A stretch of DNA of 64,000 nt from an uncultured Lentisphaerota bacterium (GTDB lineage: Bacteria; Verrucomicrobiota; Kiritimatiellia; CAIQIC01): positions 75,375 to 139,374 of the forward strand of contig CAITZM010000052.1 in NCBI GenBank assembly GCA_903896925.1. Direction: 5' to 3'. Of this stretch, positions 3,104-63,954 are shown piece after piece. A model generated the notes under the pieces. The model had not been told where the DNA came from, searched no databases, and saw nothing but the letters and a program-made list of their open reading frames with translations. The translations under genes were made by a program, and so were the position numbers. Position 1 is the stretch's first letter. Each line of letters begins with the position of its first letter.

Positions 3104-4495
3104 TCATTGCGGAATCACCCACGCCGAGACGGTGGCGCAGGGTTGTTTTGGTGTGAATTTCAACCGCAGCTTCGCGTGGGTTGGCAGCGGCGCGATGCTG
3201 CACAGCTTGCCGGCGTGGACGGGCGTGGGATCAAGTTCCAGCCAAGCCTGCGTGGCGGGATTCCAGGCGACAAGTCGCAACACGCCGTCCTGATCGCTGG
3301 TCAGGTGCAACGCGAACGGAGTCCGGTCAGGTTCCAGAAGCATGCTCTGGGCGCCGGCGGGTTCGATGGCCTGTTTCTCCCAGAGCACGATGGGCTGGTG
3401 CATGGAGCGTTTCGGTGCACGAATGAGGCCGAGGCTTTGCCGGCCCGTGCTGTAATAGAGGTAGAACCATTCGTCGTCGGCTTCGAGGCTCCACGGATGA
3501 AGGCTGCCGCGCTCATAAGCCTGGTTGCGATAGAGCGTGCGCCGTCCGAGCGTGATCCAGCGGTCGAGCGAGAGGCCGACCATCGGCGCGGAGTCGCGGC
3601 TGTCGAGTTCGTAGCTCAAGCCGGCCCACACGCTGCCGATGCGCACCGGACAACGGATGGTCTGGCCGCTGTCGTGATGGTCGCCGGTGGCGCGCGTGTA
3701 GAAGCCGCTGTAGTTCGCGACGGGCGCTTTCGTCCGGTGCCACACGATGCCGTCGTCGCTTTCCGCGAGACCGTTCCATTGGCCGTGCAGGCCGAACGCG
3801 GTGTAAATCATCCGCCACGGCCGCGTTTTCTCTTCGGGCAGATAGAACACTTTCGCCGCATCCACGCCACTGCCGCCGACGGCAGGATGCTCGTTGATGC
3901 CCGGCGGCTCGGGGCCAAGCACGGCGCCTTTGCGGCCATCCACATTGCCCTGCCGCGTCCAATGAATGCCGTCTTCGGACGTGGCGAGCGCGATGTATTT
4001 CATCATGGGCGGCGGCAGCTTGCCGGTTTTCGGATCAGCAAAGACGTGGCCCGGCGCCCAGTAGTAGAGGTGGAACCTGCCGTTCACTCGCAACGCGCTG
4101 GAGGGCGAAAGAAACGTCCCTTCCCACGGCTCGGTCGGTTCCAGCACCGGGTTGCCGGGATGTTTCGTCCAACACACGCCATCCTTCGATGTCGCGAGGC
4201 CGATGCTGTGCCGCTTGCCCAGGCAGGCATACCACATCCGCCAATCCTCGCGCCCTAGCCGGATCACCGCCACGCGCTCGATGCCGGCCTCGTCCCACGC
4301 GCCTTTCTCGCCCGCGATGAGGATGGGATTCGCGGGGTGCTTGTAGTTGTTCAAGTTCACCGTCAGCAGCGGAATGCTCCCGGCAAGCGCGATGGCGGCG
4401 CTGGAGTCGAGTTTCGCGACAGAGGCGCTGGCGTTGTCCTCGGCGCGGAGCGTTGCGGCGAGGAAAAGGGAGAGAAAGAGGAACGTTCGTTTCAT
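3104..4495 (-). CDS. glycoside hydrolase-like five-bladed beta-propeller protein (GH130/DUF377- or GH43-like), secreted
   Basis: ORF 3104..4798; ATG at 4495 verified (MKRTFLFLSLFLAATLRAED). ATGA overlap with the stop of the upstream sulfatase gene. Motifs NPILIAGEKGAWDEAGIERVAVIRLGREDWRMWYA resemble the N-terminal blades of GH130/GH43 beta-propellers. The track's N-terminal extension is Arg-rich junk. Confidence 0.7.
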   Translation of the reverse strand: MKRTFLFLSLFLAATLRAEDNASASVAKLDSSAAIALAGSIPLLTVNLNNYKHPANPILIAGEKGAWDEAGIERVAVIRLGREDWRMWYACLGKRHSIGLATSKDGVCWTKHPGNPVLEPTEPWEGTFLSPSSALRVNGRFHLYYWAPGHVFADPKTGKLPPPMMKYIALATSEDGIHWTRQGNVDGRKGAVLGPEPPGINEHPAVGGSGVDAAKVFYLPEEKTRPWRMIYTAFGLHGQWNGLAESDDGIVWHRTKAPVANYSGFYTRATGDHHDSGQTIRCPVRIGSVWAGLSYELDSRDSAPMVGLSLDRWITLGRRTLYRNQAYERGSLHPWSLEADDEWFYLYYSTGRQSLGLIRAPKRSMHQPIVLWEKQAIEPAGAQSMLLEPDRTPFALHLTSDQDGVLRLVAWNPATQAWLELDPTPVHAGKLCSIAPLPTHAKLRLKFTPKQPCATVSAWVIPQ

Positions 4496-6087
4496 GGTTT
4501 CTTCGGCGGCGGATAGTGGCCTTCGCCCATTTTGTTTTTCGGGTTCACGTTCGGATAGGTGTCGGCAATGTCGGGGTTCGCGCCATGGAGTCGCGGATCG
4601 CGGGTCCGCTTTAGCTCCGCGTCCAACTGCGCGGCAAGCTGGGTTTTCGCCGCGGCATGCCCGGGAGCGGTGGCGAGGTTGTGCAGGCAAGCGGGGTCCT
4701 GCTGGATGTCGTAGAGTTCCTCGGCGGGATGGCGGCCGACGATGAGTTCGAGCAGCGCGGCGTATTTCTTGGAAGTGCGGGCTTCCTTGACGAGCCATTG
4801 CAGCGTCTCTTGGTCATCAACGTCGCGGTAGCAACCGGCGTGGCGCGGCAGCAGTTGGCCGGTGGCCTTGTTGACGCGCTGCGGGTCACCCACTGGCCAA
4901 CGGTCCGGCCGCAGGTTGCGCAGGTAGAGATACTGCGGCGTGCGCAAGACGCGGATGGGATAGCCGATGTCGTTATAGCGCGTGAGGGTGTGCCGCTCGT
5001 GGCCGGCGAAGACGAAGGCTTGGTCGGGATTGACGAGGCCCTGCTTGCCGCCGGCGAGCAGCGGCAGGAAATCGCGGCCCACGGGCGCGAGCGCGGGATC
5101 GTTCTTCGACGGATGTTCCACCTGCGCGGCGGCGAGGATGGTGGCATTCAAGTCCACAAAGCCGATGGGGTCCTCCATCACGCGGCCACCCGGCACGCGC
5201 TTCGGCCAGGCCACGATCATCGGGACGTGCAGGCCGTATTCATAGCACGTCGCTTTCGCTCGCAGCATCGGCATGCCATTGTCGCCAGTGATGATGACGA
5301 GCGTGTTTTCCAGTTCGCCGGCTTTTTGCAGCAGGTCAAGCATCTGGCCTAGCTGCCGATCAAACCATTCAATCTCGGTGAAGTAGTCCAGGAAATCGCT
5401 GCGCACTTCCGGCGTGTCCGGCAGGAAGCCGGGTACAACCACGTCCTCAAGCTTCTTTCCCGACTTCAACCCGCTGCCGCGCTCGTACCCACGATGCGGC
5501 TCCACACTGCCATACCAGAAGCAGAACGGCGCGTCCGGGTTTCGCTTCTTTAGGAACTCGGCGAAGTTCGCGGTATAGTCGTTGTCCTTGATGCCGGAGA
5601 GCGGCGGCGCGAGGTGGTGGCTGTTGAACGCCGGCCCGACGGGATTCCCCTTGCGCCCGGGGCCGAGATCGCCCGGCGACCACGGCTTGCCCGTGAAGCC
5701 GACGGCGTATCCTGCGCGCACCAGCAGATCGGGAAAGCTGACGAACTTCGCCGGGAACAAGCCATGATGCGTGCTGGCTTCTTCATTCATCCAAACATGG
5801 CGGCCCGTGAGTAGCGCCGCGCGCGAAGGCGAGCAGCCGGGCGCGCCGCAAAAACCATTGCGGAACAGAACACCGCTCTGCGCCACGCGGTCGATATTCG
5901 GCGTGCGCAACGTCTTGCAACCGGCGATGGACATGTGCGGCCACGACATATCATCGGCAATGGCAATGAGGATGTTGGGCCGCCCTGCGCCTGCATCTTG
6001 ATCTGTCTGCGTGGCCGACAGCGCTGTACCGGCCAGCAGAGGCAACAAGATCACCATGCATGAACTGGCAACAGACAGCGTCTTCAT
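4492..6087 (-). CDS. S1-family sulfatase (Cys-type, CSPSR), N-sulfoglucosamine-sulfohydrolase-like
   Basis: ORF 4492..6276; ATG at 6087 verified (MKTLSVASSCMVILLPLLAGTALSA), ATGA overlap with the next gene's stop. Signature GAPGCSPSRAALLTGR, PNIDRVA, metal-binding DDM at the N-terminus. Confidence 0.85.
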   Translation of the reverse strand: MKTLSVASSCMVILLPLLAGTALSATQTDQDAGAGRPNILIAIADDMSWPHMSIAGCKTLRTPNIDRVAQSGVLFRNGFCGAPGCSPSRAALLTGRHVWMNEEASTHHGLFPAKFVSFPDLLVRAGYAVGFTGKPWSPGDLGPGRKGNPVGPAFNSHHLAPPLSGIKDNDYTANFAEFLKKRNPDAPFCFWYGSVEPHRGYERGSGLKSGKKLEDVVVPGFLPDTPEVRSDFLDYFTEIEWFDRQLGQMLDLLQKAGELENTLVIITGDNGMPMLRAKATCYEYGLHVPMIVAWPKRVPGGRVMEDPIGFVDLNATILAAAQVEHPSKNDPALAPVGRDFLPLLAGGKQGLVNPDQAFVFAGHERHTLTRYNDIGYPIRVLRTPQYLYLRNLRPDRWPVGDPQRVNKATGQLLPRHAGCYRDVDDQETLQWLVKEARTSKKYAALLELIVGRHPAEELYDIQQDPACLHNLATAPGHAAAKTQLAAQLDAELKRTRDPRLHGANPDIADTYPNVNPKNKMGEGHYPPPKKP

Positions 6088-7457
6088 TTGCCCTCCAGCT
6101 TCGGCAGAGCGCGGCGCCAGTCGAGCGCGAGCTGGCGCAGGCGCGCAGCGATGGCCTTTTCCTGCTCCGCCAGGTTCTGTGTTTCGTTGGCGTCTTTTTC
6201 CAGGTCGTAGAGTTCGGCCTGCCCCGAGCTTTGTCGAGGGGCCTGTGTGCCGTCGGCATTGACGAGCAGTTTCCATTTACCGTCGCGTACCGCCACGTTC
6301 GGGCTGCGGTCGCGGCCGGCGGGATATTTGAACGACTTGTTGTTGCGCCCGTACTCCCAGAACAGCGGCTTCGTGCGCGCGAGCGGTTTGCCCAGCCACG
6401 CGGCGCTCACGTCCTCGCCATCGAGGGCCGCGCCTTCCGGCGGCTGCGCACCGGCGACGGCGCAGACCGACGGGAACAGATCCACCGCGCCCGACACCGT
6501 GCGCTCGTCCACTCGGCCCGCCGGCACGCGGCCGGGCCAGCGCACGATGAACGGCTCCCGCACGCCGCCCTCGTAGAGGCTCAGCTTGCTACCGCGCAGC
6601 CCGGCGGCGCGCGCGCCGCCGAAGGTCGGCAATGGTCCATTGTCACTGGTGAAAATCAGCAGGGTTTTTTCCTCCAGACCCAATTCCTTCAAGCCCGCGA
6701 GCAGCCAGCCGATCTGCCGGTCATACTCGCCCAGTACGCGCTGGAAATTTTCCGGTTTGTCGCCGCGCGGCACATCATCGGCCGGCACCCACGGCGTGTG
6801 CATGTCATCGGGCCAAAGATTGATGTAGCACGGCTGGCCCTTGTGGCGGCGCAGGAAGTCGAGCGACTTGTCCACGAAGAAGCCGGTGCGTTCCCAGCGC
6901 TTCACCTTGTCCTTGGGCGACCAGATCCAGTTGGTGGCGGTGAGGTCCGGGTGCGGATCGGGGCTCTCCCACGTGCTCGCGTACTCGTCGAAGCCGTAGG
7001 CGGTGATCGCCGGTGCGTTGGTCACGTCGCGCCCGCCGCCCATGTGCCATTTGCCGAAGTGACCCGTCGCGTAACCCGCGGCCTTGAGCGCGCGTGCCAG
7101 CGACGGAGCCTTGGCGTCGAGAAAGTCGGCCTGTTCGCACGCCCGGTTGCCGGCGCGCGTCTGCAGATAGCTCGTCAAATGCCAGCGCGCCGGGAACATG
7201 CCGGTGGTGAAGCCCGTGCGCGACGGGGAACAGATCGGCGCGGCGACCGTGAACTGCGTGAAGCGCGTGCCCTCGCTGGCGAGCCGGTCAATGTTCGGCG
7301 TCGGCACAAACTTCCCGCCATTGCACCCGACGTCGCCATAGCCCATGTCGTCGGTCAGAATAAAAATGATATGGGGTGGCATTGTACTTTCGACGGCGAA
7401 AGCATTAGCCATGCTGGCCAGCATCACGAGCCACAACCAGCGTTGGAATCCTCTCAT
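6084..7457 (-). CDS. S1-family sulfatase (CSPSR)
   Basis: ATG at 7457 verified. Signal peptide MRGFQRWLWLVMLASMANAFA. ILTDDMGYGDVGC...TPNIDRLA...AAPICSPSRTGFTTG. Confidence 0.9.
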   Translation of the reverse strand: MRGFQRWLWLVMLASMANAFAVESTMPPHIIFILTDDMGYGDVGCNGGKFVPTPNIDRLASEGTRFTQFTVAAPICSPSRTGFTTGMFPARWHLTSYLQTRAGNRACEQADFLDAKAPSLARALKAAGYATGHFGKWHMGGGRDVTNAPAITAYGFDEYASTWESPDPHPDLTATNWIWSPKDKVKRWERTGFFVDKSLDFLRRHKGQPCYINLWPDDMHTPWVPADDVPRGDKPENFQRVLGEYDRQIGWLLAGLKELGLEEKTLLIFTSDNGPLPTFGGARAAGLRGSKLSLYEGGVREPFIVRWPGRVPAGRVDERTVSGAVDLFPSVCAVAGAQPPEGAALDGEDVSAAWLGKPLARTKPLFWEYGRNNKSFKYPAGRDRSPNVAVRDGKWKLLVNADGTQAPRQSSGQAELYDLEKDANETQNLAEQEKAIAARLRQLALDWRRALPKLEGK

Positions 7458-7460
7458 GCT

Positions 7461-9182
7461 TCACTCCCGGCCTTTCTTTTTCGGCGCTGCGTGCGCCTCC
7501 CGGCCATGCGCGTGCACACGCGCGGCCCACTCGTCCCACTGTGCGGCCATCTGCTTGACGCGTTCCGGCTGCGTTGCGGCAAGATCATGCAGCTCTACAC
7601 GGTCGGCATCCATGTCGTAGAGCTCCCAATTTCCGTGGGCGAGCGCCACCAGTTTCCACTTGCCGCTGCGCACCGCGCGGTTGCCCTCGTGCTCGAAAAA
7701 GATGGTGCGAAGTTCCGCCGGCTCGCTCCGCAGCGCGGGCGCGAGGCTGCGGCCCGCAGGGGCCAGCTTGCCCGCAGGATAGGCGGCGCCCCCGACCTCG
7801 AGGCACGTGGCCATCACGTCGCTGATGTGGCCGGGTCGCCGCTCCAGTTCGCCGCCGCGTTTCAGACCCGCGGGCCAGTGGATGATCAGCGGCGTCGCAA
7901 TGCCGCCCTCGTGGCTGTAGTGTTTGTAGAGGCGGAACGGCGTGTTGCACGCGTTGGCCCAAGCGCTGCCATAGCTCACATAGCTGCCCGGAGCACCTAT
8001 CTCGTCGAGCGCCGCGCCGGTGTGCAGCACATTGTCACCGCTGGTTGTGCCCAGGTTGATCTCGTGGACATTCTGGGCGACGTCGAAGCCGAACGGATCC
8101 CACTCGGCGCACGCGCCGTTGTCGGAGAGGAAGAAGATCAGCGTGTGCTCCAACTCGTCGTGCTGTTTCAAATCAGCAATGACGCGGCCGATGTTCTGGT
8201 CCATGCGGTCCACCGCGCCGGCGAACGCCGCCATGCGCCGCGTGAGATCGGCGCGACGCTCGGCTTCGAGCGTGTCCCACGCCGGGTTCGCCTTGTCGGC
8301 CCAGCCGTGCTTCGTCGCGACAACGTTGGGCGGAATGACCGAGCGCGGCGTCAGCGAGCTCACGCCAGCGAGCAGGCCGAGCTGTTGCTGGCGCGCATAG
8401 CGCGCGTCGCGGATCTTGTCCCAACCCTGCTCATAGGTTTGCGCGTATTTGGCAATCTCCGCCTTGGGCGCGTGCAGCGGGAAATGCGGCGCATTGAAGG
8501 CGAGATAGAGGAAGAACGGCTTGTCGCCGGCCTGCCGCGCCGACGTGATGAAGTCGAGCGCGTGGTCGGTGATCGCATCGGTGGAATAGAAGGTCCCCTC
8601 CGGATAGCTGCGCGGCACGCGACCCTCCGGCCGGCGCGTATAGAGCGCCGGATTCCAGAAGCTACCGTAGCCGCCGAGCATCCCGTAGAACTCGTCGAAG
8701 CCACGCAGCACCGGCCCCGGTTGACCGAGATGCCACTTGCCGGACATGAACGTGCGATACCCGGCAGTTTTCAGCACTTCCGGGATTGTCGCGCAGTTTG
8801 GCGGCAGGCTACCGCTCATGCCGCCGAAGCCGACCTCGTGCGGATAGAGCCCCGTCAGCAGCGACGCGCGCGAGGGACAGCACCGGGCGCAGTTATAGAA
8901 TTGCGTGAAGCGCAGCCCACCCTGCGCGAGCCTGTCGAGATTGGGCGTCGCAATCTCGCCGCCGTAGCAGCCGAGATCGCTGTAGCCAAGATCGTCGGCG
9001 AGTATCAATACGATGTTGGGCCTGCCCCGAGCCCCGTCGAGGGGCCTGCCCCGACCCGTGGTGAGCGCCGTCGAACCAGCGGAGTCGATGGAAGTCGACG
9101 AGGCGCTACTTCCAACCATGGGAAGGGCCAGCGTACCGGCGGCGGCGAGCTTCAGAAAGTCGCGACGATTGGTTGCTCTCAT
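7461..9182 (-). CDS. S1-family sulfatase with twin-arginine (Tat) signal (CCPSR)
   Basis: ATG at 9182 verified. MRATNRRDFLKLAAAG Tat motif. LILADDLGYSDLGCYG...TPNLDRLA...ARCCPSRASLLTG. Confidence 0.9.
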   Translation of the reverse strand: MRATNRRDFLKLAAAGTLALPMVGSSASSTSIDSAGSTALTTGRGRPLDGARGRPNIVLILADDLGYSDLGCYGGEIATPNLDRLAQGGLRFTQFYNCARCCPSRASLLTGLYPHEVGFGGMSGSLPPNCATIPEVLKTAGYRTFMSGKWHLGQPGPVLRGFDEFYGMLGGYGSFWNPALYTRRPEGRVPRSYPEGTFYSTDAITDHALDFITSARQAGDKPFFLYLAFNAPHFPLHAPKAEIAKYAQTYEQGWDKIRDARYARQQQLGLLAGVSSLTPRSVIPPNVVATKHGWADKANPAWDTLEAERRADLTRRMAAFAGAVDRMDQNIGRVIADLKQHDELEHTLIFFLSDNGACAEWDPFGFDVAQNVHEINLGTTSGDNVLHTGAALDEIGAPGSYVSYGSAWANACNTPFRLYKHYSHEGGIATPLIIHWPAGLKRGGELERRPGHISDVMATCLEVGGAAYPAGKLAPAGRSLAPALRSEPAELRTIFFEHEGNRAVRSGKWKLVALAHGNWELYDMDADRVELHDLAATQPERVKQMAAQWDEWAARVHAHGREAHAAPKKKGRE

Positions 9183-19594: not shown

Positions 19595-19739
19595 GAGCGT
19601 TGCGTTTGTCATCTTTGCTCCGTCAATCCCAACCCTTGAATAACGTTGCATCAGGCGGTTCCAGTGTTTGGAATTTTTTGGTTCAAACGGCAGCGCTGGT
19701 AATAAGGTTGGCGGGCCAGCCAGGGCATGGTGTTTTGTT

Positions 19740-33693: not shown

Positions 33694-33698
33694 TATCT

Positions 33699-51207: not shown

Positions 51208-51224
51208 CCCATGTTTCCTTCCGT

Positions 51225-51277
51225 GCCCAACACAGCCGACAGACATCAAACGCGGCAACCCTCGCCCTATTGTGCCC
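51225..51277 (-). promoter_or_regulatory. conserved leader/promoter motif, copy B (upstream of sulfatase 49843..51207)
   Basis: cccaacacagccgacagacatcaaacgcggcaaccctcgccctattgtgccc; see copy A at 46446-46497. Confidence 0.4.
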
Positions 51278-52304: not shown

Positions 52305-52697
52305 TTGAGTCAGCTGTCTTTTCCCGTCCGGCAACTCCCGCGACCCGCGCGGGAGATAGAACTTTTCGCGGGCATTTTAGGCCCGCCGTGGAGCCCCACA
52401 AGCTTTTTCCCGCAGCATGGAACACGTTGAATCGCAAGACACGGAAGCACCATGGATTCGGTTTTGCACTTTGCAGGATCCGGTAGCTGCACCCGTGAGG
52501 ATACGGCTGGCCGCATTCTCACGAATGCGGCTACAGCGAGGATTCTGCTGGAAGTAGCCGCGCTCGTCAGAGTGCGGCCAGCCTCAGCACCACCCCAACC
52601 AACCATCAGATCGCTCCATGCTGGCAAAGCTTCCACCCGCTTCCGTAACCGACTCGTGGGAGTGCGGCGGGGTTGCGCGGCACCAGCAGTTCGGCGT

Positions 52698-56489: not shown

Positions 56490-57980
56490 TCATTCGCCTG
56501 CGCGTTTTTTTCCCGCCGCTTTCTTCTTGGCCTTGGCGGCAGCCGTCTTGACCTCGGAGCGCATCCGCCACGGGAAGTTCGTGTTGTCCATACGGGCGCT
56601 GCTCATCAGCTTTTCGGCCTTGGCCACAAGTTCGGGGTATTGCGCGGCAAGATTAATGGTTTCGCCGGAATCTTTGCTCAAGTCATACAGCTCCGTCGGT
56701 ACGTCGGTGAAGTTTCTGACGGCTTTCCAATCGCCGAAGCGGAGACCCTGGATGGAGCCAGTGGTGCCTTCGTGTAGTTCCCAGTAGAAGTAGTCGCGCT
56801 TGGGCGCGGAACCGCCCTTGAGGAACGACACCAGCGAATAGCCATCGGGCTGGAAACCCGCCGGGAGCTTCGCGCCCGTGAGTTCGGCTGCGGTCGGCAG
56901 AAAATCCCAGAACGCCCACGGCTCGTCGCTGACGCGGCCGGCCGGGACAACGCCGGGCCAGCGCGCGAGCGCGGCCTGCCGGAGGCCACCTTCATACATG
57001 CTCCGCTTGAAGCCGCGCAGCTTGCCGCCCATGGACTGGTCGAAGAACTTGCCAACCTCCGATTGCGCGTTGAATGACGAGCCATTGTCACCCGCGAGCA
57101 TGACGAGGGTGCTGGAGTCTAGTTTGAGTTCCTTGAGCAACGCGAGCAGCGCGCCCACATCGGCGTCGAGTCGGGAGACCATCGCGGCATAGGTCTGCTG
57201 CCGCGGCGTCCAGCCTGCCCGCTGCGCATACTCGCCGAGGTCATCAATGTCGCAGGGTCCGTGCGGCAAGGTGACGGCATAGAACAGGAAGAACGGGCGC
57301 TCCTGCTGCCGGCGCACCCAGCCATGCACGTCTTTCTGGATCAGGTTCTGCGCATAGGTTTTCTTCGCGCCGTTCGCATTTTCCGGCAGCTCAACGCGCT
57401 GGTCATCACAAAAGAGGTTGGTGGGGAAATAACTGTGCGCGTGGACCTGGGAATTATAACCGAAGAAATGGTCGAAGCCTTTCTTCAACGGACTGCCGGT
57501 GGTATCGAATTGGCCCATCCCCCACTTGCCCATGCAGGCGGTCGCGTAGCCCTGCTGCTTGAGCAACTGCGCCACCGTGAGGGTGGTTGCCGGCAGCGGC
57601 AGTTCACCGCCGCCAAACGGGGAGTTTTCGACCTGGAACCCGCGATTGCTCCGGACCGGCGCATGCCCCATGTGCAAGCCGGTCAGCAGCGAGGTGCGTG
57701 ACGGTGCACACACACTGGTTCCGCTGTACGCCTGTGTGTAGCGCGTGCCCTCCGCGGCCATGCGATCGAGGTTCGGCGTCTTGATGAGCTTCTGCCCATA
57801 ACACCCGAGGTCACCCTGCACGAGATCGTCGGCAAGAATGAAGACGATATTGGGCCTGCCCCGACCTGTGGTGAGCGCCGTCGAACCAGCAGAGTCGAGG
57901 GGGAACTCTGCGACCTGTGTTTTTACAACCATTGGAAAAACGCACAGCAGGGCCGCCATGCTCGCGCGCCGGATGTTCAT
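56490..57980 (-). CDS. S1-family sulfatase (CAPSR)
   Basis: ATG at 57980 verified. [26 protein letters not shown]...[34 protein letters not shown]...TPNLDRMA...[20 protein letters not shown]. Close paralogue of 62578..63954. Confidence 0.9.
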
Positions 57981-59557
57981 CGTTTCTTCTTCCCCTTGGC
58001 TTTTTTTGCCGCGGCTGTGCCGGTGACGTACGGCGGTTTATCGAAGGCGTCGGTGAGGCGAGGGTCCTTGGTCTTCTCCAGCACCGCCATCAGGCGCGCC
58101 GCGAGTTCCTGCTTCGTGACGGCGTAGGCGGGGTCGCCGGCCACGTTGCCCATCTGGTCCGGGTCTTTGCGCAGGTCATAGAGCTCTTCGCCGGGACGCT
58201 TGCCATAGATCAGTTCGTAGACCGGCTTGGTCGCCGGCTCATTCCGATGCTCGACCAGCCAGGCGACCGTACCACTGCCCTGTGAATTTGGATCGCCCTT
58301 GGGGCCGAGATCGTCGTAGGGCTCGCCGCTCGGCCAGCGGTCGGGCTTGAAGTTGCGGATGTAGAGGAAGTCGGTCGTCCGAATCGCCCGCATCGGATAC
58401 GGCATACCGTCCGGGCGCGTCAGCGCCTCATGACGTTCCCGACCCACGATCACATGGTCGCGGGCGGGATCAATCAGCCCGGATTTTTCCGATTTGAGCA
58501 GCGGCAGCAGCGAGCGGCCATCCATCACCGCGGGCGGCGTGAGGCCCGCCGCCTCCAGCCACGTGGGCGCGAGATCAATCTGGCCGACGAAATCATCCAC
58601 CACGCGGCCCGGCTTGGCGATGCCCGCCGGCCAGCGGATCATCAGCGGCGCGCGGACGGCGAGGTCGTAGCAGTGTGTCTTGCCGCGCGGCATGTTCACG
58701 CCGTTATCGCCGGTCAGGACGACCATCGTGTTATCCAACGCACCGGCCTTCTGCAATTCGTCGAGCATCCAACCGACCTCCAAATCCAGCGCGAGCACTT
58801 CGCCGAGTGTATCGGCAAAATCGGCGCGCGCCTCCGGCACATCGGGGATGTAGGCAGGCAGTTTCCCCTTGAGCGCATCCGGCTCGATGCCCCACAACGT
58901 CTTGCCGGAACCTACGGCAAAGGGCCGATGTGGCCCGACCGGACCGATGACGTGGAAGAACGGCTGACCGGGCTGGCGGTTGGCCAACACCTTCTGCATC
59001 ATCTCGCGCACGGTTTGCTCCACGACCTTTGCGGTCTCTTCGCGGTTGAGGCGCTTCTTTTTGGCGTAAAGGCTGAAGCGCAGCGCGTCGCCCTCCATCC
59101 GAATGCTCTTGGAAAGTTTTTTATCCAGCTCCAGCGTTTTCCCGGAGAAGGTCGTTGCATAACCCGCCTGAGCCAGCAACTGTCCGAACCGGGGCAGGGT
59201 CAAGCCCGGATCGGGTATTTGGTTTTTCTCCCAACTGGGATCGGGCTGCAGAAACGCCTGTGTTCCGCACCGCCAGAAGTAACAGCCGCTCGCCATCGAG
59301 GCGCGCGACGGCGCACAGGAAGAGACACCCATGAACGCGTGACGGAACAACACACCCTCGCGCGCCACGCGGTCTATGTTTGGCGTCTGGATCACATCGT
59401 TGACGCTCGGCCGGGCCGGATCGCTATAGCAACTGGCATTGCGCCCCCAGTCATCACCGAGGAGGAAAAGAATATTGGGCCGTTCCGCCGCCTGCACACT
59501 TCCAGCCACTGGCAACAGGCAGAGCGTGGCGCTGATGATCGCGAGTTGTCTATTCAT
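57977..59557 (-). CDS. S1-family sulfatase (CAPSR)
   Basis: ATG at 59557 verified; ATGA overlap with the 56490.. start. MNRQLAIISATLCLLPVAGSVQAAERP; ILFLLGDDWGRNASCY...TPNIDRVA...GVSSCAPSRASMASG; C-terminus [11 protein letters not shown]. Confidence 0.9.
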   Translation of the reverse strand: MNRQLAIISATLCLLPVAGSVQAAERPNILFLLGDDWGRNASCYSDPARPSVNDVIQTPNIDRVAREGVLFRHAFMGVSSCAPSRASMASGCYFWRCGTQAFLQPDPSWEKNQIPDPGLTLPRFGQLLAQAGYATTFSGKTLELDKKLSKSIRMEGDALRFSLYAKKKRLNREETAKVVEQTVREMMQKVLANRQPGQPFFHVIGPVGPHRPFAVGSGKTLWGIEPDALKGKLPAYIPDVPEARADFADTLGEVLALDLEVGWMLDELQKAGALDNTMVVLTGDNGVNMPRGKTHCYDLAVRAPLMIRWPAGIAKPGRVVDDFVGQIDLAPTWLEAAGLTPPAVMDGRSLLPLLKSEKSGLIDPARDHVIVGRERHEALTRPDGMPYPMRAIRTTDFLYIRNFKPDRWPSGEPYDDLGPKGDPNSQGSGTVAWLVEHRNEPATKPVYELIYGKRPGEELYDLRKDPDQMGNVAGDPAYAVTKQELAARLMAVLEKTKDPRLTDAFDKPPYVTGTAAAKKAKGKKKR

Positions 59558-59581
59558 TGGCTTGATGGCTTGGTGTTGGCT

Positions 59582-61087
59582 TCAGCGAATTTTCTGGTCG
59601 GGCAGTTCGGCCTTGATGCCTTGGTCGAGCGGCATTTTGTCCTTGTCCGGGGTCAGGCCCTCGGCCGCGAGCAGGTCGACAAGCTGGGCTTCGAGTTTGG
59701 CGCGGGTGGCGGCGTGCTGCGGCGCGGCCGCGAGGTTGTGCAACTCACCGGGATCGTCGGCAAGATTATAAAGCTCGGGCAGATGCCGGTCGGGCGTGCC
59801 ATCGCCGTGCGGGTAGCGGATGAATTTCCATGCGTCGGTGCGCAGCCCGCGCACGTTCGGCGTGTAGGGGAACTGTTTCTCGTAGTTATATTCGTAGAAC
59901 CACTCCGTCCGCCAGGCGCTGTCGCCCTTGTTCGCAAGCTGCGCCCAGGAGCGTCCCTGGATGTTCGCGAGCGCGGGCGCGCCGCACAGATCCAGGATGC
60001 TCGGCGCGATGTCGAGCGTGAGCGCCTGCTGCGAAATGACCTTGCCCGCGGGCAGCCCCGGCCCGCGAGCGATCAAGGGGATGCGGATGCTCGGCTCGTG
60101 CATCGTGCGCTTGTCCACCATCCCGTGCTCGCCCTCGAGCAGTCCGTTGTCGCCCATGAAGACGATCAGCGTGCGATCAAACTGGCCGCTCGCGCGCAGA
60201 TAGTCCACGAGCCGGCCCACGCTGTCGTCCACGCTCAAGATCGTGCCCCAGTAGGCGTGGACCATGTTTTCGAAATCCTTCACCGCTTCCGGCCGGCTGT
60301 CGGGGAACTGCTTGCGCCAGTCGAACAGCGGGCCGTAGATGCCGTGCCACGTGGTCAAACGCTGGCGGATCCAGTCGGGTTTGCCGTCGAGCGCGAAGGC
60401 GCTCGCCGGATAGGGCACGCGAACACCGTCGAAGGCGTGGGCATACTTCTCCTCGGGGAAATAGAACGAATGCGGCGCCTTGTGGCCAAGGCAGAGCGCC
60501 CATGGCTGGCCGGGCTCGCGTTGCTTGAGCCAGTCGAGGGCATAGTCGGTGACCACCGTGGTGTAATAACCTTTAGGCGTCTCGTGGCGCTGGCCGTTCA
60601 CGCACCACTCGGTGTCGAAATATTTGCCCTGCCCCTTGTGCGTGGTGAACCAGTCGAAGCCCGGCCGCGGCGCGTCGTTGTTCTCGCCCATGTGCCACTT
60701 GCCCACATAGGCCGTCGCGTAGCCCTGCTCGTGCAGCCGGCCCGGCCAGTGCGGCAGCGCGGCGGGCAACTCGGTGAAGTTGTCGCGCACGCCATGCCGG
60801 TGCGCGTAGAGGCCGGTGAGAATGCTCGCGCGGCTGGGCGAACAGAGCGACGTGGTGCAGAAGGTGTTCGCAAACCGCACGCCACCGGCGGCGAGCGCAT
60901 CAATGTTCGGCGTCTTCACGTTCGGCGATCCGTAGCAGCCCAGCGCCGCGGGTCGCAAGTCATCACAGAGGATGAAGATGACGTTCGGCTTGGCAGCCGC
61001 AGCGTGTGTTCTTCCATACAGGGAAAGCAGGCCAAGCACCGCGGCCAGCAGCAACTTGATCCGGGTTGATAGGATGTGTTTCATCAT
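59582..61087 (-). CDS. S1-family sulfatase (CSPSR)
   Basis: ATG-ATG at 61087/61084 verified. [34 protein letters not shown]; [18 protein letters not shown]...TPNIDALA...[22 protein letters not shown]. Confidence 0.9.
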
Positions 61088-61093
61088 GGTGAC

Positions 61094-62581
61094 CTATTCC
61101 GCTTCATCTCTGCCCCGGCCTTTTTTTCCCACGCGCAGCGGAGCGGCCGCGGGTGTGGCCGCTTCCCACTGCGCCAAGGCTTGCTTGAGCTCCTCGCGCA
61201 CGCCCGTGCAAGCAGGACTCGCAAGCAGGTTTTGCATTTCCCAAGGATCTTTCACCAAGTCAAACAGCTGCTCATACTCAACTGTTCCGCCTTTTTTGAA
61301 GCGCACGTATTTGTGGGTCTGGCTGGTGAGGGTCACTGTCTGGCTGTCCACGCTGCCGCCCAGCTCGCTGACTGCATACTTCCGCCACTCGTTGGTCTTG
61401 CCCTGCGTCAGCGCGAGCAGGCTCCGGCCCTGGATGTTGGCGGGAATACTCAATCCCGCCGCTTCCAACAGCGTGGGCAGGAGATCAATGGAACAGGCCA
61501 GTTCGTTCACACGCGTCCCCGCGGGAATGACGCCCGGCAGGCGCACGATCATGGGCACACGCACCGTTGGCTCATAACCGGTGCCACCTTTTGTCCACGC
61601 GCCGTGCTCGGCCATCATCTCGCCATGGTCGGCGGTATAGACCACGATGGTGTTCTTCGCGAGGCCCAGTTGCTCCAGTTCCTGCAAAACCAAACCGATG
61701 TTGTGGTCAATCTGGGAGACATAGCCGTAGTAATAGGCCAGCGTCTGGCGGTACAGCAGTTCGGTCTCATAGGTGCCGCTCTTTTTGAGGAAGCCGTCCA
61801 TGCCCGGCAGCTGTGCATCCTTATGCTTCCATGATGGCGGCAGCGTCAGCTTGGCCGGATCGTACCAGGCGGACCACGGCTTGGAGACGCAGATGGGCGA
61901 GTGCGGCCCGTGAAAGGAGCACCACACGACAAAGGGCTTGGCCTTGTGCTCACGGAGGAACTCGATGGTCTTTTGCGCGATCACTCCGGCATTGTGTTTT
62001 TCATTGGGCACCGCTGCCTCCCCGACCTTGGCCCGGCCGGGATGCGCCTGTTCATAGGGCAGCGACTTGCTGTAGTCCCAAGGGCTGCGCGGATCTTCCA
62101 CCACATCAAAGCCATGGTTGTGATTCTGAGGCGTCATCTCCATGTGGTGTTTACCGATCGTGCCGCAAACATAGCCGCGCGCGTGGAACAGGTCCGCGAC
62201 CGTGTTCTCCGCGGCATTCTGGCCGCAGCCATTGGCATAGGTGCCGGTGCTGCGGGCATAGCGCCCGGTCCAGATGGAATAGCGGGAAGGCACGCACTGG
62301 GCCGTCTGGCAGAGTGCCCGCGTGAAGACCGCGCCGTGGGCCGCCATTGCATCCAGGTTAGGCGTCTTGATCTCGGCGTTGCCGTAGCAGCCCAGCGCCC
62401 GCGCATTGTGCTGGTCGGACATGATAAACAGCACGTTCAACGGTGGCTTGGCAGACTTTTCCAAGGCTTGCCCGCCCCGAGCAGCTTGTCCTGCAAGGCG
62501 CGGCTGGAATTCAGCAGCCTGTGTTTTTCCAACCATTGGAAAAAGCAGCAACCCGGCGAGGAGCGTGCGCTTCAGCGTCAT
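61094..62581 (-). CDS. S1-family sulfatase (CVPSR)
   Basis: ATG at 62581 verified. [25 protein letters not shown]...[20 protein letters not shown]...TPNLDAMA...[20 protein letters not shown]. Confidence 0.9.
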
Positions 62582-63954
62582 GATTTCTTGTTCGCCTTCT
62601 TGCCCTTGGCTTTGGCTTTCGCCACCATCGGCCAGTTCGGGTCGTCCACGCGCGCCTGCTGCATCAGCGCCGCGGCCTTCGCAACCACCTCCGGCTGGCT
62701 TGCGGCGAGATCGGTTTTCTCACCCTCATCCTTGGCGAGGTCATAGAGCTCGATGGCCGCGGCCGGGCCGTTCCGCACGGCTTTCCAGTTGCCGAACCGG
62801 ATCGCCTGGATGGGATGATTGGCCTCGTGCAATTCCCAGTAGAAGCAGTCGCGCCGCGGCGCCGCGCCGCCCTTGAGGAAGGAGACGAGCGAGAAGCCAT
62901 CGGGCTTGCAGGCTGCGGGTATCTGCGCGCCGGCCAGCTCGACGGCGGTCGGCAGGAAATCCCAGAACGCCCACGGCTCCTCGCTGACACGCCCGCCCGG
63001 GATCACGCCGGGCCAGCGCGCGAGCGCCCCCTGGCGTAGTCCACCCTCATACATGCTCCGCTTGAAGCCGCGGAGCTTGCCGCCCATGGACTGGTCGAAC
63101 AGCTTGCCGATTTCCGTATTGGGTGCGAACGACGATCCGTTGTCGCCGGAGAACATCACCAGAGTCTTCTCGTCGAGCTTCAGTTCCTTGAGCAGATCCA
63201 GCAGCCGGCCGACATCGCTGTCCAGCCGCGTGACCATCGCGGCATAGGCCTTCTGCTGCGCAGTCCACGGCTTGTCCTTGTAGATGCCGAGATCATCAAT
63301 CTCGAATTTCGCGTGCGGCAGCGTGATGGCATAGAAGAGGAAGAACGGCTGGTCTTTCTGCTTGCGCACCCAGCCGAGCATGTCGTTCTCGATCAGGTTT
63401 TGCGCGTAGGTCTTGCCGTCGAGCGCGAATGACTTGTCGTCGTTGAAGAGGTGGTCGGGGTAATAGTTGTGCGCGTGGCGCTGGCAGTTGAAGCCGAAGA
63501 AATGGTCGAAGCCTTTCTTCAGCGGGCTGCCGGTGGTGTCGAACATGCCCATGCCCCACTTGCCCATGCAGGCGGTCGCGTAACCGGCGGACTTGAGGAT
63601 TTGCGCGATGGTGACCGTCTCCGGCGGCAGCGGGAATTGGCCGGCGCCGGTCGCGATCTCGCGGTTTGCGCGCACCGGCGAGTGGCCCATGTGCAGCCCG
63701 GTCATCAGCGACGTGCGCGACGGCGCGCAGACCGTGGTGCCGCAGTAGGCCTGCGTATAGCGCGTGCCCTCGGCGGCCATCCGGTCGAGGCGCGGCGTCT
63801 GGATCAGCTTCTGTCCGTAGCAGCCGATATCCCCCTGCGCAAGATCGTCGGAGAGGATGAAGATGATGTTGGGCTTCTCCGCCGCCGCAGCATACGACGC
63901 GGCGAGGCATGCCAGACCCAGACCGAGGGAACTCAGCAGTGTTTTTGTTTTCAT
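62578..63954 (-). CDS. S1-family sulfatase (CAPSR)
   Basis: ATG at 63954 verified; ATGA overlap with the 61094.. start. [28 protein letters not shown]; [18 protein letters not shown]...TPRLDRMA...[20 protein letters not shown]; C-terminus [11 protein letters not shown]. Confidence 0.9.

Follow-up and report, generated by a model that had tools for sequence, protein, structure and literature searches.

A dense sulfatase island in a PVC bacterium of a stratified freshwater lake

The window, that is the whole analysed stretch of 64,000 nucleotides, raises the question why so many sulfatase genes stand together and which glycan their products would attack. A sequence-only reading had described 24 Cys-type S1 sulfatases interleaved with glycosidase-like and esterase genes. 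We suggest, with a probability of roughly 0.7, that the window forms the core of a more than 81-kb catabolic island for highly sulfated, O-acetylated glycans in a PVC lake bacterium.

The sulfatase array

By Pfam scans of all long open reading frames in the window we could show that exactly 24 of them match the sulfatase family PF00884, with scores of 116–235 bits and thus 24/24 above the cut-off of 25, all on the minus strand between positions 4492 and 63954 (Table 1). In the alignment the cysteine at the formylglycine position and the arginine of the motif are kept in all 24 sulfatases, as is the D-N/H pair, and the first metal-ligand residue is always present, as aspartate in 23 of them and as histidine in S14. 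The motif reads C-x-P-x-R with the single exception of S06 (C-S-T-S-R); in a first-match motif search of the 150 cluster representatives nearest to S06, ~91% have proline at the same motif position. The paralogues are 28–44% identical, and only S20 and S24 form a closer pair (69%). The array consists of old, diverse paralogues that are intact Cys-type S1 enzymes, and the number given by the earlier reading stands. In Pontiella agarivorans, a sulfatase-rich PVC genome, 4.6% of the open reading frames code for sulfatases (PMC10880615). With this fraction as background and the 39 gene models of the window as sample, the binomial probability of at least 24 sulfatases by chance is ~1e-22.

The 24 sulfatases split into seven deeply diverged groups (A–G), and subfamily labels were taken from searches of the group profiles against solved structures (PDB). 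The nearest solved relatives are S1_8 for group A (9bb9, S1_8A, and human SGSH), S1_4 for group B (7all and 1hdh), S1_15 for group C (7oze, 6s20, 9bau and the Akkermansia mucin sulfatases 9s7x/9s85), S1_19 for group D (6prm and 6bia), S1_20 for group E (7ana and 7an1), S1_16 for group F (9fo1) and S1_11 for group G (5g2v, 7p24 and 7lha). Two of the groups, A and G, are heterogeneous, with ~30% identity among their members. Where the substrates of the solved relatives are known, they are mostly sulfated Gal, GalNAc or GlcNAc; the other relatives include the arylsulfatase AtsA and human SGSH (subfamily activities: 10.1101/2020.11.20.392076; PMC12549532). Among the solved enzymes, 9bb9 is a Gal-2-sulfatase from the lambda-carrageenan cascade, 6prm a kappa-carrageenan Gal-4-sulfatase, 7ana and 7an1 are Gal-3-sulfatases, 5g2v and 7p24 GlcNAc-6-sulfatases, and 7lha is an L-Gal-6-sulfatase.

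Table 1. Features of the window
Gene	Position	Strand	Assignment	Evidence
	1..171	-	5' end of 536-aa gene, runs past window	full gene on L008
G01	281..1363	-	secreted TIM-barrel-like protein, weak GH42/GH35 similarity	GH42 17.7 bits (cut-off 21); GH35_fam weak
G02	1398..3080	-	secreted PD40/TolB-type beta-propeller, DUF1349-like region	PD40 77 bits; TolB propeller match
G03	3104..4495	-	secreted GH130-like beta-propeller candidate	weak NCBIfam matches
S01	4492..6087	-	sulfatase, group A (S1_8-like)	PF00884 142 bits; CSPSR; profile nearest 9bb9 (S1_8A), SGSH
S02	6084..7457	-	sulfatase, group F (S1_16-like)	PF00884 164 bits; profile nearest 9fo1 (S1_16)
S03	7461..9182	-	sulfatase, Tat leader, group B (S1_4-like)	PF00884 235 bits; TAT_signal match; 7all, 1hdh
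S04	9179..10747	-	sulfatase, group C (S1_15-like)	PF00884 183 bits; 7oze, 6s20, 9bau
S05	10882..12498	-	sulfatase, Tat leader RRDFLK, divergent group A, motif CQPVR	PF00884 140 bits
S06	12503..14164	-	sulfatase, group B (S1_4-like), non-canonical C-S-T-S-R	PF00884 189 bits
G04	14227..16857	-	secreted 876-aa protein, GTG start inferred; glycosidase-like TIM barrel, beta-sandwich domains	AF2 model
S07	17156..18499	-	sulfatase, group D (S1_19-like)	PF00884 209 bits; 6prm, 6bia
G05	18689..19612	-	secreted alpha/beta-hydrolase, dienelactone hydrolase type, candidate esterase	DLH 48.8 bits; other alpha/beta-hydrolase families
S08	19740..21188	-	sulfatase, group C (S1_15-like)	PF00884 177 bits
S09	21185..22690	-	sulfatase, group E (S1_20-like)	PF00884 180 bits; 7ana, 7an1
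G06	22711..24711	-	secreted DUF4838 protein, GH163/GH185 hexosaminidase catalytic domain type	PF16126 135 bits
S10	24708..26234	-	sulfatase, group C (S1_15-like)	PF00884 155 bits
G07	26231..27928	-	secreted 565-aa protein without Pfam family; TIM barrel, CBM-like beta-sandwich	AF2 model
G08	27925..29934	-	secreted GH110-like parallel beta-helix, candidate inverting alpha-1,3-galactosidase	Beta_helix 29 bits
S11	29953..31410	-	sulfatase, group C (S1_15-like)	PF00884 200 bits
G09	31420..33702	-	secreted LamG, GH32-like propeller, GH32 C-terminal domain	GH32N 85, GH32C 44, Laminin_G_3 48 bits
S12	33699..35657	-	sulfatase, group D (S1_19-like), extra C-terminal module	PF00884 218 bits
G10	35689..37245	-	secreted TIM-barrel-like protein, weak GH42 similarity	GH42 17.9 bits (cut-off 21)
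S13	37269..38858	-	sulfatase, group C (S1_15-like)	PF00884 160 bits
G11	39024..40583	-	SASA-type carbohydrate O-acetylesterase	PF03629 58 bits; 68% identical to G13
S14	40603..42051	-	sulfatase, divergent group A, HD instead of DD	PF00884 129 bits
G12	42053..43273	-	AXE1-like alpha/beta-hydrolase, candidate acetylesterase	PF05448 42 bits
G13	43348..44868	-	SASA-type O-acetylesterase, start codon uncertain	PF03629 61 bits
S15	44969..46432	-	sulfatase, group A (S1_8-like)	PF00884 116 bits
G14	46789..47802	+	secreted LamG/concanavalin-like protein, sole plus-strand gene	Laminin_G_3 104 bits
S16	48166..49821	-	sulfatase, group A, C-terminal EF-hand pair	PF00884 135 bits; EF-hand_5 39 bits
S17	49843..51207	-	sulfatase, group D (S1_19-like)	PF00884 215 bits
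G15	51618..52334	-	hypothetical small secreted protein, gene call uncertain	ORF listing
S18	52698..54542	-	sulfatase, group D, extra C-terminal module	PF00884 174 bits; C-terminal module comparison
S19	54563..56461	-	sulfatase, group F (S1_16-like), extra C-terminal module	PF00884 192 bits
S20	56490..57980	-	sulfatase, group E (S1_20-like)	PF00884 171 bits; 69% identical to S24
S21	57977..59557	-	sulfatase, group A (S1_8-like)	PF00884 125 bits
S22	59582..61087	-	sulfatase, group G (S1_11-like)	PF00884 190 bits; SGSH_C 108 bits; 5g2v, 7p24, 7lha
S23	61094..62581	-	sulfatase, group G (S1_11-like)	PF00884 184 bits
S24	62578..63954	-	sulfatase, group E (S1_20-like)	PF00884 186 bits
	63951..64000	-	3' end of 25th sulfatase gene (697 aa), mostly outside window	full gene on L005

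Gene order, extent of the island and host

The genes had been described as nearly all co-oriented and secreted. In agreement with this, 38 of the 39 gene models lie on the minus strand, at a coding density of 95%, and signal-like hydrophobic N-terminal segments, as judged by hydrophobicity and by eye, are found in all 24 sulfatases and almost all of their partners; two sulfatases, S03 and S05, have clear twin-arginine (Tat) leaders. Long plus-strand reading frames opposite the genes gave no family matches in the window. The intergenic gaps measure ≤35 bp in 26 of 38 cases and exceed 100 bp in about nine. The latter, together with the heterogeneous glycosidase set, suggest that transcription probably proceeds in several units and that more than one glycan may be targeted. 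Within the sub-operon S11-G08-G07-S10-G06-S09-S08 the genes overlap or are separated by ≤20 bp, and Gal-sulfatase-like genes alternate with galactosidase-/hexosaminidase-like genes. The order mirrors the cyclic scheme of desulfation followed by cleavage that was shown biochemically for lambda-carrageenan.

The island is cut at both window ends and was extended on both sides by means of identical metagenome contigs. Contig L008 is 100% identical to positions 1–6656 and holds the whole 536-aa gene, whose product matched no Pfam family, and contig L005 is 99.97% identical to positions 60353–64000 and carries the complete 697-aa sulfatase (PF00884, 171 bits), which has its C-terminal module in common with S12. 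Including the flanks, at least 28 sulfatases are found in ~81 kb, as the flanks supply four more sulfatases, and in addition two GH127 genes, one GH78 gene and one class II aldolase gene. An assembly artefact is an unlikely source of the array, since three independent assemblies agree with it at 99.7–100% identity. As had been stated for the window, no local maturase is encoded: FGE (PF03781) and radical-SAM/anSME genes are absent from the window and from 8.6–8.8 kb of flank on each side. Nor do the 81 kb encode a transporter, a regulator or a cytoplasmic pathway for galactose.

The closest genome, with 90% amino-acid identity, is labelled "uncultured Lentisphaerae bacterium", and homologues with a named source bear the labels Verrucomicrobia, Opitutaceae, Lentisphaeria or Planctomycetes. 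This supports the PVC origin that had been proposed. The host lives in a stratified freshwater lake.

Glycosidase and esterase candidates

The island encodes about nine glycosidase-like proteins. All candidates are remote from characterised enzymes, and a curated family threshold is passed only by the DUF4838 protein, GH32N/C and the GH127 and GH78 proteins of the flanks. The three "GH42-like paralogues" of the earlier reading do exist as GH42/35-like TIM barrels (G01, G07 and G10) with a common W..EP.EG.DF motif, but they are very distant relatives and not paralogues in the usual sense. G10 has a C-terminal beta-sandwich in common with G07 (hhalign against the G07 family: 95% probability, E 2e-8). 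The AF2 models of G04 and G07, confident to moderate, are glycosidase TIM barrels. That of G04 is closest to GH168/GH114-type barrels; G04 itself is widely conserved in PVC bacteria and has no Pfam family, and its homologues in other genomes do not adjoin sulfatases.

The other predicted partner types were recovered. The DUF4838 gene (G06) encodes the type of domain that is catalytic in GH163 and GH185, GH185 being a 6-sulfo-GlcNAcase family (PMC10570127). The beta-propellers are represented by G09 (GH32N/GH32C), G02 (PD40) and the weak GH130-like matches of G03. No Pfam family was matched by G03 in the Pfam scan, and its NCBIfam matches, to beta-1,2-mannobiose phosphorylase and BT3780 beta-1,2-mannosidase, lie far below the cut-off. 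G09 has the RDP and EC motifs and lacks the canonical nucleophile motif WMNDPNG. The parallel beta-helix protein G08 can be refined to GH110-like: its family profile matches solved GH110 enzymes (best 9beh, E 2e-20), and the conserved D326, D349 and D350 match the catalytic triad D321/D344/D345 (D...DD) of PdGH110B in identity and spacing. Two SASA esterases and two alpha/beta-hydrolases, of DLH and AXE1 type, were found as predicted. G15 matched no family in Pfam and NCBIfam scans.

Substrate and proposed order of events

Fucoidan, mucin, carrageenan and GAG had all been named as substrates. This list proved too broad. Fucoidan, which headed it, is least supported, as GH29, GH95, GH141 and GH107 are absent from the window and the flanks, and a fucose-sulfatase-type structure is the nearest solved relative of none of the seven sulfatase groups, for which the known substrates are mostly Gal, GalNAc and GlcNAc sulfates. 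The class II aldolase would fit rhamnose or fucose catabolism. A role in GAG catabolism is less favoured, because GAG lyases and GH88/GH105 are missing from the island. We favour over both a sulfated galactan or Gal/GlcNAc-rich heteroglycan that would stem from algae, cyanobacteria or animal mucus, and give this substrate class an even chance. The GH78, GH127, GH32-like and GH130-like genes fit poorly to a simple galactan, and neither an endo-galactanase or carrageenase of recognisable type (GH16, GH82, GH150) nor a GH2 was found.

In the proposed catabolic island the enzymes would be exported via Sec, or via Tat in case of S03 and S05, and a maturase from another part of the genome would turn the motif cysteine into formylglycine. 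Outside the cytoplasm, exo-sulfatases of differing positional specificity would trim the non-reducing end; their nearest solved relatives take 2-O, 3-O, 4-O and 6-O sulfate off Gal/GalNAc and 6-O sulfate off GlcNAc. O-acetyl groups would be removed by the four esterases, and a matching glycosidase would free each unmasked sugar. This step may fall to G08 as GH110-like alpha-galactosidase, to the GH42/35-like barrels and to the hexosaminidase-type G06, and further to the GH32-like and GH130-like propellers, with G04 as a possible endo-enzyme. The flanks would contribute GH127, GH78 and the class II aldolase.

Overall, a dense, secreted and co-oriented S1 battery with glycosidase-like and esterase genes in a PVC bacterium is retained from the earlier reading, but not its breadth of substrates. 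Sulfatase islands as a type of locus are already known, and the present one is very dense. Several of its enzyme families are undescribed so far, and the island looks like a toolkit to eat heavily sulfated, probably galactose-rich, slime polymers.

Gene content and extent of the island

A Pfam scan of every candidate protein in the window retrieved exactly 24 proteins of the sulfatase family PF00884, with scores of 116–235 bits against a cut-off of 25. The sequence-only reading had arrived at the same number of sulfatases, and all 24 lie inside the island as it had delimited it and score above the curated threshold of the family. The sulfatase genes, numbered S01–S24 by position, make up 62% of the window genes and 58.6% of its DNA. 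At a background frequency of 4.6%, which is the share of sulfatases among the ORFs of Pontiella agarivorans, the probability of at least 24 sulfatases among 39 genes is ~1e-22.

The G+C content of the window is ~64% with little variation, and for this reason the ORF listing contains many spurious antisense ORFs. We picked the gene models by GC3, Pfam matches and N-terminal signal sequences. Long ORFs on the plus strand (up to 1059 aa) were rejected as antisense artefacts of GC-rich DNA, as a Pfam scan of the ten long plus-strand ORFs opposite gene models gave no match. The resulting 39 genes cover 95% of the window and 38 of them are located on the minus strand, the sole plus-strand gene being G14 with its LamG domain. 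Of the 38 junctions 26 are at most 35 bp long, many of these being 4-bp overlaps, and at about nine intergenic gaps of more than 100 bp the window divides into roughly ten units. The window contains no Rfam RNA families, no tRNAs and no mobile-element genes, and scans of it for promoters and terminators stayed at background level. A SusC/SusD pair as in the polysaccharide utilization loci (PULs) of Bacteroidota is absent from the window and its flanks, where neither Plug nor TonB_dep_Rec nor SusD gave a match. Between two sulfatase units lies a stretch of 1.5 kb whose sole content is a doubtful 238-aa ORF (G15, GC3 0.69, no family match); it could be a regulatory region or encode a small novel secreted protein.

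The identity of the window to independent metagenome contigs is 99.7–100%, which rules out a one-off assembly artefact. Two of the matching loci prolong the island. On the left, locus L008 adds 8.6 kb with two unknown genes, two GH127 genes, two more unknown genes and a Tat-sulfatase; on the right, locus L005 adds 8.8 kb with three sulfatases having the motif CSPTR, which are 697, 640, and 622 aa long, a class II aldolase of 434 aa that matches Aldolase_II twice and, at the contig edge, a gene for a GH78 alpha-L-rhamnosidase. GH127 is the family of beta-L-arabinofuranosidases and 3,6-anhydro-D-galactosidases. Judged by these families, the flanking GH127, GH78, and aldolase genes would suggest that the substrate or substrates contain arabinose, anhydrogalactose or rhamnose. 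The island thereby comprises at least 28 sulfatases in ~81 kb, ten of which are consecutive (S18–S24 and the three in L005). Of the four flank sulfatases, two matched PF00884 with 171–179 bits in a renewed scan; the other two are counted by their precomputed PF00884 annotation. Family scans of the window and of the 17 kb of flanks found no gene for FGE or anSME, the maturases which convert the sulfatase cysteine to formylglycine, and transporter, regulator and mobile-element genes are likewise absent from those 81 kb.

The samples form part of the metagenome series which Buck et al. obtained from stratified lakes (PMC8121793). Among species-representative genomes the nearest is a MAG from Lake Loclat named "uncultured Lentisphaerae bacterium", with 90% amino-acid identity in G04, a secreted barrel protein. 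A contig from another sample, L001, is 99.67% identical over 9.4 kb and then leaves the window inside the 5′ end of the G04 gene; past the divergence it carries a heparinase-II/III-like lyase, a PQQ propeller, an RHH/PIN toxin–antitoxin pair and efflux genes. This departure would represent either a strain-level variant or rearrangement or a chimeric assembly.

Sulfatase groups, active sites and appended modules

In an all-against-all BLAST comparison most sulfatase pairs are 28–44% identical and S20 and S24 are the sole close pair with 69% identity. These identities rule out a recent tandem amplification, and from their sequences the sulfatases are an assembly of ancient paralogues. The DNA "repeats" of the window consist of conserved sulfatase motifs and signal-peptide codons. 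The sulfatases form seven groups, whose profiles were searched against all solved structures; the top scores reach 274–447 bits, and the group labels are to be read as "nearest solved relative" only.

Sulfatase groups with the SulfAtlas subfamily of the nearest solved structure
Group	Members	Subfamily	Structures	Top score (bits)
A	S01, S05, S14, S15, S16, S21	S1_8	9bb9 "S1_8A", human SGSH	274
B	S03, S06	S1_4	7all, Pseudomonas AtsA 1hdh	420
C	S04, S08, S10, S11, S13	S1_15	7oze, 6s20, 9bau, Akkermansia 9s7x	381
D	S07, S12, S17, S18	S1_19	6prm, exo-4S kappa-carrageenan sulfatase	447
E	S09, S20, S24	S1_20	7ana, 7an1	406
F	S02, S19	S1_16	9fo1	343
G	S22, S23	S1_11	5g2v, 7p24; L-Gal-6-sulfatase 7lha	289

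Enzymes of subfamily S1_20 remove 3S, those of S1_16 4S and those of S1_15 6S from Gal/GalNAc, for S1_4 enzymes the targets are 3S or 6S on Gal, or aryl sulfates, and S1_11 enzymes remove 6S from GlcNAc (10.1101/2020.11.20.392076). The S1_8 enzymes of the lambda-carrageenan pathway are Gal-2-sulfatases (PMC12549532). The nearest characterised relatives therefore act mostly on Gal, GalNAc or GlcNAc sulfated at O2, O3, O4 or O6; other nearest relatives include the arylsulfatase AtsA and human SGSH. For none of the seven groups is a fucose-, uronate- or xylose-specific structure the nearest relative among the solved structures. We infer all specificities from remote homology.

In the MAFFT alignment the cysteine at the formylglycine position is present in all 24 proteins, which are Cys-type sulfatases, and so is the motif arginine. 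The first metal-ligand residue (Asp, in S14 His) and the later Asp–Asn/His pair are also kept in all 24. Single substitutions at the metal site are His for the first Asp in S14 and Gln for the second Asp in S23, and Asn is replaced by His in S05, S14, and S23. The His of the GKWH motif is replaced by Gly, Ser or Glu in six sulfatases and the Lys of this motif by Gly, Arg or His in S05, S16, and S14; the late Lys corresponds to a gap in S23. Across the 24 proteins Lys and His are kept at most of the catalytic positions. The motif C-x-P-x-R is found in 23 of them, the exception being S06 with C-S-T-S-R, where Thr stands for Pro and Cys and Arg are retained. Among the relatives of S06 (the 150 nearest 50%-identity cluster representatives, first-match motif search) 136 have Pro at this position and about ten, ~7%, have another residue (T, S, V, L, I, E, G). 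The non-Pro variant is, on this motif search, rare but recurrent within the S1_4-like clade of S06.

The first 56–75 nt of 14 genes exhibit 63–88% DNA identity and code for a signal peptide of MKHTLTLIAALLLAPLAALHAA type. The alike leaders front unrelated mature domains, namely a PD40 propeller, an alpha/beta-hydrolase, DUF4838, the barrel proteins G07 and G10 and several sulfatase groups. This likeness could stem from convergence under GC-rich Leu/Ala codon usage or from the spread of a leader cassette. An identical 15-residue peptide follows the signal peptide and precedes the first conserved strand in S03 and S20, which belong to different groups (S1_4-like and S1_20-like), and a related peptide, VTALSTGRGRP, opens one of the flank sulfatases; the shared peptide could serve as linker, processing site or sorting signal. 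The C-terminus of S16 contains two EF-hand calcium-binding motifs (EF-hand_5, 39 bits), which are reminiscent of dockerin-like or Ca-dependent anchoring modules. In addition, two kinds of unannotated C-terminal modules of ~130 aa (BLAST E 1e-6 to 1e-20) are found on sulfatases and may be carbohydrate-binding modules.

Positions of features in the window and, where prefixed, in matching loci
Feature	Position	Bearer
Sulfatase genes	4492–63954	S01–S24
Sulfatase with C-S-T-S-R motif	12503–14164	S06
Barrel protein gene	14227–16857	G04
Divergence of L001	16770; L001:9436 onward	
GH110-like gene	27925–29934	G08
Leader copies	3025–3080, 14109–14164, 18447–18502, 19539–19594, 21130–21185, 22635–22690, 24656–24711, 26179–26234, 27873–27928, 33635–33690, 35602–35657, 37190–37245, 41996–42051, 56403–56458	
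Identical 15-residue peptide	~9030–9074	S03
Identical 15-residue peptide	~57840–57884	S20
Related peptide	L005:2959–2995	flank sulfatase
EF-hand motifs	48166–48500	S16
C-terminal module, first kind	52698–53220	S18
C-terminal module, first kind	54563–55050	S19
C-terminal module, first kind		640-aa and 622-aa sulfatases of L005
C-terminal module, second kind	33699–34330	S12
C-terminal module, second kind		697-aa sulfatase of L005
Stretch between sulfatase units	51208–52697	G15
Two GH127 genes beyond left end	L008:8674–12920	
GH78 and aldolase genes beyond right end	L005:3–2820	

Partner genes of the sulfatases

Several of the other window genes have family matches. G06 matches DUF4838 (PF16126) with 135 bits against a cut-off of 26.6 over the profile positions 13–323 of 325; a search with the single sequence found no relative among solved structures. 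DUF4838 provides the catalytic domain both in GH163 (BT1035, an N-glycan endo-beta-GlcNAcase) and in GH185 (Sp_0475, an exo-acting 6-sulfo-GlcNAcase), and its sequence-similarity network is very diverse (PMC10570127). G11 and G13 are SASA esterases (PF03629, 58 and 61 bits, cut-off 24.8) with 68% mutual identity, G12 is AXE1-like, G05 is of the dienelactone-hydrolase type and G02 is a PD40 propeller, whereas G03 has at most a weak GH130-type similarity. G09 combines Laminin_G_3 with the two GH32 domains (PF00251, 85 bits; PF08244, 44 bits). From the three GH32 motifs it keeps RDP (416) and EC (499); an NDP-type nucleophile motif within a WMNDPNG block was not found, and the Pfam match begins at profile position 17. 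A fructosidase role of G09 is, on these motifs, not to be assumed.

G08 has a Beta_helix Pfam match and its single sequence retrieved nothing from the PDB. A profile of 34 homologues retrieved nine distinct solved sequences of GH110 alpha-1,3-galactosidases (among them 9beh/9bev (GH110A), 8pvs, 8yk1-3, 7jw4, and 9i4f) with E values of 2e-20 to 4e-11, ahead of everything else. The best match is GH110A of the lambda-carrageenan cascade, with a remote 75 bits between the family profile and this protein. The kinship to GH110 is remote since the G08 sequence alone matches nothing. PdGH110B has the catalytic residues D321, D344, and D345 (PMC7939477). The position of D326 in G08 is D or E in 33 of the 34 homologues, D349 and D350 are invariant in all 34, the spacing within the triad (23 residues) is equal to that of PdGH110B and the DD pair aligns with the DD of GH110A. 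We regard G08 as a remote GH110-like candidate alpha-galactosidase. The gene has a G+C content of 57.3% compared to 63.7% for the window, which hints at a more recent acquisition.

The 876-aa protein G04 is predicted to consist of a TIM barrel and beta-sandwiches; its GTG start and signal peptide were assigned by comparison with homologues. The family of ~850-aa proteins counts at least 792, of which the 120 listed have 49–89% identity to G04; among those listed, the homologues with a source name are labelled Verrucomicrobia, Opitutaceae, Lentisphaeria or Planctomycetes, and all are annotated as "hypothetical". Such conservation is unusually strong for a secreted glycosidase-like protein, and the contexts elsewhere are varied carbohydrate genes. 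G04 matches no model in Pfam and NCBIfam, including the GH168/GHL15 model named by PDB depositors. In the predicted model a GH168-like barrel is the nearest fold, with 11–16% identity to the GH168 structures; judged by its sequence, which has no family-level similarity, G04 is not a GH168 member. A Foldseek search with the whole multi-domain model gave noisy low-TM matches (GH101 and GH85 first; also viral capsids) and was not used for family assignment. By its modelled fold G04 would be a glycosidase-like barrel outside the assigned families. In three other PVC genomes (L009–L011) its homologues adjoin GH127, or LacI, BNR_2, and a TonB-dependent receptor, or a heparinase-II/III-like gene. As none of the three lies beside a sulfatase, the G04 family is not tied to sulfated substrates, and conserved neighbourhood failed as a support for an action of G04 on sulfated glycans. 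The protein has no match in the plasmid collection, and no link to a Lentimonas-type megaplasmid is shown.

Three genes, G01, G07, and G10, had been read as GH42-like paralogues from the sequence alone. The resemblance to GH42 is real; the paralogy was overstated, as the three are only distantly alike. They have only the first-strand motif W..EP.EG.(F/Y)DF in common, a C-terminal beta-sandwich is common to G07 and G10 (hhalign 95% probability, E 2e-8), and the gathering threshold of PF02449 (GH42) is not reached across the catalytic domain.

Substrate of the island and comparison with known systems

The best-supported reading is that the island encodes a secreted cascade which would desulfate, deacetylate and then cleave a highly sulfated O-acetylated glycan. 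In the tightly packed sub-operon S11-G08-G07-S10-G06-S09-S08, Gal-6S-like and Gal-3S-like sulfatases would alternate with a GH110-like alpha-galactosidase, a GH42-like barrel and a DUF4838 hexosaminidase-type enzyme. By analogy, this order mirrors the lambda-carrageenan cycle with S1_8 and S1_15 sulfatases before GH110 and GH2 (PMC12549532). Because of this likeness, we favour a sulfated galactan or a Gal/GlcNAc-rich heteroglycan as substrate, with a probability of about 0.5. The locus of Pseudoalteromonas distincta U2A for lambda-carrageenan resembles the island in its cyclic exo-desulfation followed by exo-glycosidase action and in the position of S1_8-type (Gal-2S) and S1_15-type (Gal-6S) sulfatases beside GH110 alpha-1,3-galactosidases, and the best structure matches of group A (9bb9) and of G08 (9beh, GH110A) come from that pathway (PMC12549532). 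On the contrary, the island has no GH150 endo-carrageenase and no GH2, contains 24–28 sulfatases as compared to five, and adds S1_4-, S1_11-, S1_16-, S1_19-, and S1_20-like groups, esterases and unrelated GH-like genes. Furthermore, P. distincta is a marine gammaproteobacterium, whereas the host of the island is a PVC bacterium of a freshwater lake.

The GH78, GH127, aldolase, GH32-like, and GH130-like genes together with the about nine larger gaps argue for a modular island, whose target may be one complex heteropolymer or several polymers. Taken further, the region could be an accumulation zone of many independent small operons for different sulfated substrates without a single "super-substrate", a tentative explanation to which we give well below even odds. 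The roughly ten units, the unrelated folds and families (GH110-like, GH163/185-like, GH32-like, GH130-like, GH127, GH78), the ancient paralogy of the sulfatases, the G+C content of G08 below that of its neighbours and the departure of the 99.7%-identical L001, which suggests modular gain and loss or a chimera, are all consistent with it. The near-complete co-orientation and coding density of the genes, their short or overlapping junctions and the lack of mobile-element genes, tRNAs and Rfam matches argue against it, as do the sulfatase specificities, which appear complementary (2-, 3-, 4-, and 6-O on the same sugars) and not redundant, as for one complex polymer. This explanation overlaps the favoured one and does not exclude it. 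As a substrate, a mucin- or keratan-like animal glycan ranks second and is rather unlikely: mucin O-glycans, keratan-sulfate-like chains or sulfated N-glycans from fish or zooplankton mucus would be degraded in the manner of B. thetaiotaomicron and Akkermansia. Five of the seven groups (S1_4, S1_11, S1_15, S1_16, S1_20) are subfamilies which B. thetaiotaomicron uses for colonic mucin O-glycans (10.1101/2020.11.20.392076) and which are also found in Akkermansia muciniphila (PMC13524802), where exo-acting Gal-, GalNAc-, and GlcNAc-sulfatases are likewise needed ahead of the glycosidases. In addition, mucin sulfatase structures of Akkermansia, itself a PVC bacterium, rank high for group C, the DUF4838 family includes the 6-sulfo-GlcNAcase and the N-glycan endo-GlcNAcase, SASA is the sialate O-acetylesterase family and GH110 enzymes also cleave the Gal-alpha-1,3-Gal epitopes found on animal glycans. 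However, the mucin sulfatases of these two bacteria are scattered over many PULs with sialidases, fucosidases and hexosaminidases, and we found no GH33, GH20, GH2, GH29/95, GH16 endo-O-glycanase, GH84/89, M60-like or other mucinase in the window and flanks. For the ten sulfatases of the S1_8-like and S1_19-like groups the closest solved structures are from carrageenan pathways, GH78, GH127, GH32-like, and GH130-like proteins are non-mucin enzymes, and the organism is free-living, being known from metagenomes of the lake water column.

GAGs are disfavoured, and a fucoidan (sulfated fucan) locus of the Lentimonas/Rhodopirellula type is improbable. In such a locus G04 would be an endo-fucanase, the sulfatases would desulfate fucose and the aldolase of the right flank would feed fuculose-1-phosphate into metabolism. 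PVC bacteria are known specialists for this polymer, and the presence of esterases and of so many S1 sulfatases would be consistent with it. The fucoidan megaplasmid of Lentimonas sp. CC4 (from the work of Sichert et al. 2020) reportedly also combines a PVC host with many secreted S1 sulfatases amid GHs and esterases and lacks SusC/D. Fucoidan is a brown-algal or echinoderm polymer and would be unexpected in a freshwater lake, which we count against this reading. The fucoidan PULs of the Planctomycetota strains 892 and 913 are likewise from PVC hosts, lack SusC/D, contain dozens of secreted S1 sulfatases amid GHs and carbohydrate esterases, and fucoidan PULs also express sulfatases of S1_15 and S1_16; the two strains have 25 and 38 sulfatases over several PULs as compared to at least 28 in one array here (PMC11685898). 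Unlike these PULs, which are marked by GH29/GH95/GH141 exo-fucosidases and fucose-specific sulfatases, the island has no such exo-fucosidases, no bona fide endo-fucanase and no fucose-specific sulfatase types: GH29, GH95, GH141, GH107, GH174, and GH187 found no match by Pfam and NCBIfam in the window and flanks, and none of the seven groups is nearest to a fucose sulfatase structure. G04 does not fit the proposed role either, given its lack of a family match, its low identity to GH168, its GH101/GH85 matches in Foldseek and homologues which adjoin GH127, BNR_2 or heparinase-like genes instead of fucosidases or sulfatases.

Sulfatase islands of PVC bacteria are well known from Rhodopirellula, Lentisphaera, Lentimonas, Pontiella, and Akkermansiaceae. 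Kiritimatiellota such as Pontiella share with the host of the island a PVC lifestyle on sulfated polysaccharides, and their sulfatases mostly have signal peptides and often adjoin GHs, with the maturases located elsewhere in the genome (PMC10880615, PMC7356697). In P. agarivorans the sulfatases account for 4.6% of the ORFs and example runs comprise "four or six copies in a row" (PMC10880615), as opposed to 62% of the window genes and ten consecutive genes here. The island thus reveals no new principle, as both the "desulfate, then cleave" cascade and the sulfatase expansion in PVC bacteria are established. What is noteworthy is the density of the island, its run of ten sulfatases, its origin from freshwater and the way in which uncharacterised glycosidase-like families are concentrated in it.

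Sulfatase-rich loci are the means by which PVC bacteria unlock recalcitrant sulfated glycans, and the characterised examples are almost all marine or from the gut. The present locus is an extreme version of them and originates from an oxygen-stratified freshwater lake. Its 24–28 sulfatases with intact sites provide a compact complementary panel for specificity mapping, and at least four uncharacterised glycosidase-like families are placed in a context which suggests their substrates. Speculatively, the island could be a freshwater route for a heavily sulfated and acetylated Gal-rich polymer, for example, a green-algal or cyanobacterial exopolymer, carried out largely by undescribed glycosidase families; candidates for these would be the GH168/GH114-like barrel of G04, the TIM-plus-sandwich proteins G07 and G10, the GH110-sister clade of G08 and the GH32-like propeller without canonical nucleophile. 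If this were true, the turnover of carrageenan- or fucoidan-like sulfated glycans would extend beyond the sea.
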